Source: Escherichia coli
GTDB lineage: Bacteria; Pseudomonadota; Gammaproteobacteria; Enterobacterales; Enterobacteriaceae
Assembly (NCBI RefSeq): GCF_003334255.1
Contig: NZ_QOWU01000279.1
Reading direction: 5' to 3' (one strand)
DNA length: 230 bases
Shown here piece after piece: positions 1-230 of the stretch. The notes beneath the pieces are model-generated. The model did no database searches. It had not been told where the DNA came from and saw nothing but the letters and a program-made list of their open reading frames with translations. Each line of letters starts with the position of its first letter. Positions within the stretch are counted from its first letter, which is position 1. The position numbers and the translations under genes were made by a program.

Positions 1-230
1 CCTGGTGCAGTGGGGCCCGCAGGCCCACGGGGACCGGCTGGTGCAGCTGGTCCCAAAGGTGATGCAGGCCCGGCAGGCCCCGCAGGAAAGGATGGTACCG
101 CCGGAGCGGAAGGTAAGGCAGGTCCGGCAGGGCCACGAGGTGAAAGGGGACCAGCGGGGGCACAGGGTGTTCCGGGGCCGGTTGGTCCGGCAGGTCCTGC
201 GGGTAAAACGGGGCCACGAGGTTTGCAGGG
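1..230 (+). CDS. Internal fragment of a collagen-like triple-helix repeat protein (Gly-X-Y)n; 5' and 3' ends lie outside the window
   Basis: Frame 1 (codons from nt 1) has no stop codon and Gly (GGN) at codons 2,5,8,...,74 without a single break, plus a partial GG at 229-230. Of 25 triplets, 13 have Pro in X (GPA x8, GPR x3, GPK, GPV). All four + strand stop codons (60-62, 114-116, 141-143, 204-206) fall in frame 3. Frame 2 is also open but has no Gly periodicity. Codon positions 1 and 2 are almost entirely G/C while position 3 is mixed, which fits this frame. Confidence 0.82.
121..194 (+). repeat. Exact 11-nt direct repeat ggtccggcagg, copies at 121-131 and 184-194 (span covers both copies)
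   Basis: Read directly from the sequence; flanking bases differ on both sides (120 a vs 183 t; 132 g vs 195 t). Both copies are in frame and encode G-P-A-G. Confidence 0.9.
130..222 (+). repeat. Exact 12-nt direct repeat gggccacgaggt, copies at 130-141 and 211-222 (span covers both copies)
   Basis: Read directly from the sequence; flanking bases differ (129 a vs 210 g; 142 g vs 223 t). Both copies are in frame and encode G-P-R-G. A third G-P-R-G at 22-33 uses different codons (ggc cca cgg gga). Confidence 0.9.

Follow-up and report, generated by a model that had tools for sequence, protein, structure and literature searches.

The window, i.e., the whole stretch of 230 nucleotides of Escherichia coli DNA that we analyzed, very probably lies in the shaft of an EPclC-type side tail fiber of a lambda-like prophage, within the second collagen domain of that protein (hereafter Col2). 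The feature is already known, as a member of a published and partly characterized family, the 'EHEC prophage collagen-like proteins' (EPcl) catalogued by Ghosh et al. 2012 (PLoS One 7:e37872, PMC3368898), and the hydroxyproline-free triple helix of this family has already been demonstrated. The value of the analysis is mostly one of annotation: a stretch missed by the Collagen model of Pfam, in a protein that RefSeq merely calls 'prophage tail fiber N-terminal domain-containing protein', can be annotated as part of the collagen-like shaft in a family already described. The initial annotation had proposed that the window encodes a collagen-like triple helix independent of hydroxyproline. The gene context, and by analogy the experiments made on the family member EPclA, support that this is probably the case. 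Domains of the EPcl type are a natural source of heat-stable collagen that can be produced in E. coli.

In frame +1, the window is translated into one Pro followed by 25 triplets, and the 25 triplets all start with Gly, making an uninterrupted Gly-X-Y run on the plus strand (4-228). Pro occupies 52% of the X positions, while the Y positions are occupied by Ala (48%), Arg or Lys (20%), and rarely Pro (4%). The imino acid content is 18.7%, to be compared with 19.0% in the Col domain of EPclA. The GC content of the window is 71% and five of its six frames are open. We took frame +1 as the real one because of its GC content per codon position (0.89/0.82/0.41) and because it extends into an open reading frame of 520 codons that has recognized domains at its N-terminus and between two collagen domains. 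The open reading frames in antisense or in other frames, such as one of 403 aa on the minus strand of the gene, were considered and rejected: given the codon-position GC and the domains on the plus strand, they are a by-product of GGN/CCN/GCN coding. A scan of the window with Rfam gave a single chance-level match (E=0.69, far under the gathering score), hence we retained no RNA element.

The whole window (1-230, plus strand, frame 1) is an internal coding segment of a lambdoid prophage side tail fiber gene, with 100% DNA identity. The identical sequence is found in the Escherichia temperate phages PhiR12_1 (at 47436-47665), PhiR12_2, PhiR12_2_star, and PhiR12_4, and in several complete E. coli chromosomes. 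Overall, the window has matches in 39 of 5,426 complete genomes and none in the plasmid collection that was searched. In PhiR12_1 and in strain NCTC9112, the coding sequence is 1,563 nt long (L002:7035-8597) and is located directly downstream of gpJ. It is followed on its 3' side by a DUF4376 tail-fiber assembly gene and then by an Eib-like YadA-C gene. In PhiR12_1, an IS element interrupts the assembly gene, and the fiber may thus not assemble in every source. The coding sequence of PhiR12_1 is intact on translation and encodes a protein of 520 aa, in which the window corresponds to residues 323-398, about two thirds of Col2. An exact-sequence look-up of this protein gave no hit in the protein collection searched, and our literature search found no paper describing the PhiR12 or PhiR5 phages.

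The protein starts with a phage_tail_N domain (PfN, PF08400) at residues 1-134 (Pfam, E=2.4e-42). A first set of collagen repeats (Col1) spans residues 136-253, with a Pfam Collagen match at 139-249 and one break, GDPGGPPG at 187-194, between the runs 136-192 and 194-253. The interval between PfN and Col1 has only around 40 helical-looking residues. Col1 is followed by a Phage_fiber_2 repeat detected by Pfam (Pf2, PF03406) at residues 260-301, by Col2, whose triplet runs give 39 uninterrupted Gly-X-Y triplets at residues 312-428, and by a C-terminal tip domain of about 92-94 aa. The protein is matched by PHROG tail-fiber families at E=7e-122, and its residues 1-91 match the collar domain of the Ur-lambda Stf (9E7M/9MGH) at E=4.5e-29. 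The same residues are 58.6% identical to lambda orf-401 (tblastn). Around Col2, collagen alpha-2(I) aligns over residues 309-426 (phmmer), the NCBIfam Lcl profile covers residues 246-426, and phrog_1806, a 'collagen like minor tail' family, covers residues 300-439. The Pfam model PF01391 (Collagen) did not match Col2, even when this segment was searched alone at E<=10, a miss that may be due to composition filtering and to the Ala-rich Y positions. The tip domain had no match in Pfam, nothing below E=0.18 in the PDB, and one weak tail match in PHROG (E=2.7e-4). A search for its homologues gave 19 matches, all in E. coli, of which 14 are labelled partial by the source. Pfam did not detect PF06820 (PfC) in the 520-aa protein.

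This architecture is that of the EPclC proteins. Their published layout consists of PfN, a Col domain with a G-x-P-G-G-P-x-G break, Pf2, another Col domain, and a C-terminus other than PfC, without a long coiled coil (PMC3368898). The present protein has PfN, two Col domains with Pf2 between them, the GDPGGPPG break in Col1, and a non-PfC C-terminus, and it lacks a long coiled-coil (PCoil) domain. Its gene is also placed as expected, after gpJ among the tail genes, in lambdoid prophages and induced phages. Table 3 of PMC3368898 includes an EPclC protein of 520 aa with Col lengths of 118 and 117, together with P-EibA ORF-401. The latter, an EPclC, has 81% identity with our protein in the alignment. 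The former, ECED1_2081 of strain ED1a (520 aa, Col 118/117), may be the same protein, as judged only from its length and architecture; it was not among the best 45 of the 150 matching records.

The published biochemistry of the EPcl family deals mainly with EPclA and less with EPclB (PMC3368898). Recombinant EPclA produced in a laboratory strain of E. coli is a trimer with the circular dichroism spectrum of a collagen and a sharp and reversible melting (Tm 42 C), and the product is neither hydroxylated nor glycosylated (PMC3368898). In other words, the recombinant circular dichroism and melting experiment that the initial annotation proposed exists for a relative of the present domain rather than for the domain itself (PMC3368898). 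EPclA (ECs2717; YYZ-2008 gp70) comes from the same host and also combines PfN with a Col domain, which has around 48% Pro in X, around 10% Pro in Y, and 19% imino acids. However, EPclA has a single Col, a coiled coil of 116 aa (PCoil), and a PfC trimerization domain. Its Col domain is also more charged than the window (36% of the X/Y positions vs 24%), has neither Lys in X nor acidic residues in Y, unlike the window, and has around 3.6 times more (K/R)G(D/E) pairs per triplet. The identity between this domain and Col2 (50-59%) reflects mostly the Gly/Pro periodicity. We infer, by analogy, that Col2 would fold like the EPclA triple helix.

Other known systems resemble the protein in part. In Ur-lambda, a 12-copy collar surrounds the tail and four trimeric side fibers hang from it; these fibers speed up adsorption and are not essential (PMC12617516). 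The side fiber Stf (Ur-lambda, 9E7M/9MGH) is thus a trimeric accessory adsorption fiber (PMC12617516), and it shares with the present protein a homologous collar, a Pf2 repeat, a position after J, and a downstream assembly gene. The tips are different, since that of Stf resembles T4 gp37 (PMC12617516), whereas searches of PDB and Pfam revealed no relative of the present one. Two collagen segments occur in the 520-aa protein, whose comparison with Stf was made through the collar, Pf2, the gene position, and the description in PMC12617516. The Scl1/Scl2 proteins of Streptococcus pyogenes are another example of a prokaryotic triple helix devoid of hydroxyproline, for which charge pairs were proposed as stabilizers (PMC3368898, PMC11923368). 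The NCBIfam models SclB and SclA do match the collagen regions, but with scores far below their cut-offs (146.5 vs 325 and 130.1 vs 400, respectively). The 520-aa protein lacks the variable domain of Scl and its LPXTG anchor, of which the sequence has no motif. Furthermore, Scl are cell-surface adhesins with 30% of charged residues, whereas the present protein belongs to a phage virion and has 16-17%. The framing of the window as part of a bacterial collagen in the initial annotation calls for a correction: the product is a structural protein of a phage and not a collagen of the bacterial surface. Finally, the upper fiber protein gp68 of the Staphylococcus phage 80alpha (PDB 6V8I) gave a match at E=1e-4 that is restricted to the collagen-like repeat (PMC7048315). 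This protein also has a short collagen-like trimeric element in the adsorption apparatus of a siphophage, but its host and the remainder of its sequence are unrelated.

Ghosh et al. observed that Pro takes about half of the X positions of EPcl proteins and is rare in Y, with Asp/Glu preferred in X and Lys/Arg in Y, and they tied these preferences to the missing prolyl hydroxylase (PMC3368898). E. coli is devoid of such enzymes (PMC3368898). In the window, Pro was said to be essentially absent from Y, which is accurate, even if it is not wholly absent: it occurs in one of the 25 triplets (GVP, 166-174). This amounts to 4% of the Y positions of the window, and the value is 8% in Col2, to be compared with 33.5% in human fibrillar collagens (PMC3368898). 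A single Y-position Pro in the 25 triplets would offer a hydroxylase hardly any substrate, and GVP is the sole conceivable site of collagen-type 4-hydroxylation in the window. A check of the genomic context for a hydroxylase gene had also been suggested. The RefSeq annotation of the whole NCTC9112 prophage, from the integrase to DinI beside ssrA, lists neither a 2OG-Fe(II) oxygenase nor a prolyl hydroxylase. Within or next to this prophage, just two unnamed open reading frames reach 150 aa, and Pfam detected no domain in them. The few Pro in Y and the lack of an annotated hydroxylase do not fit a hydroxyproline-dependent collagen of the animal type.

The initial annotation had also described a charge-rich segment at 55-147. 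Its end is correct, being the end of the GER triplet, but its start is not, because nucleotide 55 is the beginning of the Lys codon of GPK (49-57). The seven triplets named for this span are all present, the GPR reported outside it were recovered at 22-30 and 211-219, in addition to the one at 130-138, and GKT was found at 202-210. The description as charge-rich holds for the span, taken as 11 triplets, where charged residues make 9 of the 22 X/Y positions (41%, or 27% of all residues). It does not hold for the whole window, where they make 12 of 50 (24%, or 16% of residues). The values for Col2 are similar, 26% of X/Y and 17% of residues. For comparison, the mean of the EPcl family is 33.5% of X/Y and 22% of residues, other viral collagens have 43.6% of X/Y, human fibrillar collagens have 26.7% of X/Y, and Scl2 has 30% of residues (PMC3368898). 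The window is therefore set apart from animal collagens by its Pro-poor Y positions, and not by its charge density.

The geometry of the charges was assessed by permuting the X and Y residues and comparing observed with expected pairs. The GKD and GER pairs, within a triplet, had been put forward as the stabilizing mode; such pairs are not enriched in the window (2 vs 0.64 expected, p=0.12), and opposite charges in X and Y of the same triplet show no enrichment across the tests (p=0.12-0.8). In contrast, opposite charges in the Y-Gly-X' geometry, where X' belongs to the next triplet, are more frequent than expected in the window (3 vs 0.62, p=0.010), as they are in each of the protein's three collagen segments (p=0.0001-0.002). 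This comes with a strong orientation, as (K/R)-G-(D/E) is enriched in each collagen segment (6 vs 2.1, 5 vs 1.2, and 4 vs 1.05 expected; p=0.0001-0.005) and outnumbers the reversed order by 15 to 1. The window has on its plus strand one K-G-D (55-63), with Lys in Y and Asp in the next X, a motif of axial inter-chain salt bridges (PMC7824840, PMC11923368), and one R-G-E (136-144), which has the KGE geometry with Arg in Y and Glu in the next X. It also has E-G-K (109-117), with the acid in Y and Lys in the next X, which is the sole reversed pair in the protein. Experiments with host-guest peptides revealed that KGD and KGE raise the Tm by 15-17 C through inter-chain salt bridges, that charges hardly interact along the same extended chain, that lone charges mostly destabilize the helix except for Arg in Y, and that Arg in Y is about as stabilizing as hydroxyproline (PMC7824840). 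KGD and KGE are over-represented in the collagens of all kingdoms and of viruses, and they slow down unfolding (PMC11923368). The density of (K/R)G(D/E) is 0.8 per 10 triplets in the window vs 2.6-3.2 in Col1 and the EPclA Col, and with around 3-4 times fewer pairs per triplet the local stability of the window could be lower than assumed. Several of its triplets (GKD, GAE, GKA, and GKT) have Lys in X or an acid in Y, at frequencies of 0.3% and 0.1%, respectively, in the EPcl family (PMC3368898).

The length of the collagen domains varies between alleles. Col2 has 39, 31, 25, 33, and 38 triplets in five homologues, always without interruption. Among the matches listed in complete genomes, the near-full-length ones differ from the 1,563 nt by 9, 45, 54, 63, 72, and 126 nt, all multiples of 9, i.e., whole triplets and not merely whole codons. 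Two of these length variants were inspected, and one of them, that of SCU-104 (45 nt shorter), is a pseudogene. One further allele among the matches listed is 7 nt off and is annotated as frameshifted. Lengths in multiples of 9 support a triple helix without proving it, and their weight is limited because slippage on repeats with a 9-nt period would by itself favor such sizes. Alignments revealed within the window a cassette of 54 nt (70-123, plus strand; 18 residues, 6 triplets) that some natural alleles have and others lack, and that contains GKD, GTA, GAE, and GKA. It is missing from the KY173 and P-EibA alleles. As the 18-residue block is missing in natural intact variants, folding cannot depend on the charges of GKD, GAE, and GKA. 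The cassette is flanked by imperfect direct repeats, 53-77 and 107-131, whose spacing of 54 nt equals its size. Another segment of 36 nt, or four triplets (4-39, plus strand), is missing in the allele of JNEC-KY179, which is otherwise near-identical in the alignment.

We propose that three chains of 520 aa would dock on the tail via their Stf-type N-terminal collar domains. Each trimer would form a thin shaft made of a short alpha-helical segment, a first collagen helix, the Phage_fiber_2 repeat, a second collagen helix, and a small C-terminal tip that presumably binds the cell surface. The tip, aided by the downstream DUF4376 assembly protein, may put the three chains in register. A triple helix would then form without hydroxyproline, since the phage and E. 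coli lack a collagen prolyl hydroxylase and Y is nearly free of Pro. The stability of the window most likely results from a mixture of contributions: the Pro that fills half of X, the three GPR, a few bridges between Lys/Arg in Y and Asp/Glu in the next X, and the flanking trimerizing domains. Charge pairing would contribute, yet less in the window than in Col1 or EPclA. In our reading, the window would lean more on Pro in X, GPR, and the flanking domains than on salt bridges, and the share of the former is probably no smaller than that of the charges.

A stricter version of the charge mechanism, in which the helix of the window is held mainly by charged residues and inter-chain salt bridges, as proposed for Scl2, seems to us somewhat doubtful. 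It can draw on the 41% of charged X/Y positions in the span, on the excess of Y-Gly-X' pairs in the window, on the gain in Tm and the slow unfolding associated with KGD and KGE (PMC7824840, PMC11923368), and on the suggestion of Ghosh et al. that a high charge content is one possible cause of the stability of EPclA (PMC3368898). Yet, at 16%, the charged residues of the window are below the EPcl mean and about half of the value of Scl2, only the KGD and RGE pairs have a stabilizing orientation, the within-triplet pairs GKD and GER show no enrichment, unpaired charges other than Arg in Y are generally destabilizing (PMC7824840), and the block with GKD, GAE, and GKA is lacking in intact natural alleles. 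At the other extreme, the tract rich in Gly, Pro, and Ala might be a flexible and largely unstructured spacer that forms no stable triple helix at 37 C. The silence of the Pfam Collagen model on Col2, the few stabilizing charge pairs, and the frequency of Ala in Y (48%) would be compatible with this. Nevertheless, a disordered linker would have no need for Gly at every third residue across 39 triplets, and across 25-39 in all the homologues examined. The length variants are made of whole triplets, the exception being the allele annotated as frameshifted. The imino acid content also equals that of the EPclA domain melting at 42 C, and the tract is flanked by trimeric elements in a family known to be trimeric (PMC3368898, PMC12617516). 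We thus regard the spacer as very unlikely and retain the triple helix with mixed contributions to its stability.

It is also possible that the collagen-coding repeats serve mainly as a substrate for recombination, by which tips are swapped and the length of the shaft is changed, a role that would add to that of the protein. We see this as about evenly balanced. The megablast matches listed end at nucleotides 444/461, 576-599, 1048, 1088, 1109, 1154, and 1187 of the gene, all of them in collagen segments and five within the window, although the end points of BLAST are imprecise in low-complexity sequences. There is a mosaic junction at 217-221 (plus strand), where PhiR5_2, KY179, and several other genomes cease to be identical and continue with other collagen tails or tips. 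In PhiR5_2 and KY173, the module formed by Col1b, Pf2, Col2, and the tip is joined to another kind of N-terminal domain, which has a long coiled coil, and lies in another context of tail genes, while KY179 and P-EibA have different tips after Col2. The 54-nt indel has the spacing of the direct repeats, there are up to 8 matching places per genome among the matches listed, and Ghosh et al. had already remarked on the modular recombination among prophages (PMC3368898). Still, repeats can recombine as a side effect, without this being a selected function. The repeat DNA appears to lie where prophages alter the length of the fiber and exchange the tips that recognize the host, which bears on host range and on assembly errors in draft genomes.

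The sequence might have no function at all, either because a cryptic prophage carries it as a decaying pseudogene or because it is the other strand that codes, but this we consider highly improbable. Two of the six full-length genes inspected are indeed pseudogenes: that of SCU-104, where the window is identical and Col2 has lost 45 nt and gained a stop (CAG>TAG), and that of G1/2, which has a frameshift. There are also long antisense open reading frames, like the 403-aa one on the minus strand. However, the other four genes are intact, and in phages isolated on K-12 and E. coli C an annotated full-length coding sequence spans the window. Moreover, the GC content per codon position fits frame +1 and antisense open reading frames are expected from GGN-CCN-GCN coding. 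A last and more speculative reading, which we deem unlikely, is that the 70-123 cassette is a repeat-flanked unit of gain and loss acting as a hinge or length adjuster, with the collagen-coding repeats being the joints at which the shaft changes length and tips are swapped. If it were true, the inverted placement of the charges in the cassette would make a stretch of helix that is locally different or weaker.

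The gene of this prophage side tail fibre looks mosaic, with the collagen repeats as its joints, judging from where the similarity between alleles stops. Matches to fibre genes of other E. coli prophages begin or end within the collagen segments, with end points at window ~217-221 and, in the full fibre gene of phage PhiR12_1 (L002:7035-8597), at gene nt 444-461, 576-599, and 1048-1187. Past these junctions, the N-terminal or tip modules differ among the fibre genes. The window itself holds an in-frame block of 54 nt encoding 18 residues (70-123), which PhiR5_2 shares and KY173 and P-EibA orf-401 lack. 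An imperfect direct repeat lies at 53-77 and 107-131, and since its spacing equals the length of the block, we suggest that the block was gained or lost through this repeat.

The second collagen-like domain (Col2) carries Lys in X (GKD, GKA, GKT) and acidic residues in Y (GKD, GAE) at window 85-117 and 202-210. Among the triplets of the window, 12% have Lys in X and 8% an acid in Y, while the published statistics of the family are 0.3% and 0.1%, respectively (PMC3368898). The part of Col2 with these triplets differs in composition from the first collagen-like domain (Col1) and from the characterised relative EPclA. The sole break in Col1, GDPGGPPG, stands between a KGD-KGD pair and a further KGD (residues 181-199 for the break and its flanks, L002:7035-8597), in agreement with the "salt-bridge knots" described around collagen interruptions (PMC11923368).

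The Pfam Collagen HMM did not match the second collagen domain (residues 312-428, L002:7035-8597), even when this was scanned alone, and automated annotation therefore under-reports the collagen-like content of these fibres. Among the 19 database proteins with the tip domain of this fibre (P0001-P0019), all of which are from E. coli, 14 are marked "partial" by their source and several lie on contigs whose length is only in the hundreds or low thousands of bases; we infer that short-read assemblies break at the multi-copy collagen repeats. The copy of E. coli SCU-104 (L001:11080-12597) is identical across the window, yet it is a pseudogene: Col1 has an in-frame deletion of 45 nt, and Col2 carries a CAG>TAG stop shortly past the downstream end of the window. 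In the PGAP annotation this copy appears as two fragments.

In PhiR12_1, an IS21-family element (istA/istB, ISEc12; L002:8614-11781) interrupts the DUF4376 tail-fibre assembly gene, whereas in the NCTC9112 prophage the same element (L003:179-2481) interrupts tail assembly gene I instead. PhiR12_1 plates on K-12 despite its split assembly gene, in keeping with dispensable side fibres. A YadA-C/Eib-type immunoglobulin-binding protein gene lies downstream of the fibre and assembly genes in four of the prophage contexts inspected (L003:9991-11073, L001:13878-15038, L007:4396-5907, and L008:3918-5096), the same order as in prophage P-EibA. In SCU-104, a gene encoding an S6-family peptidase (SPATE-type autotransporter; L001:15871-19896) sits directly past the Eib-like gene, where the prophage ends and ahead of the yciE-trp region.
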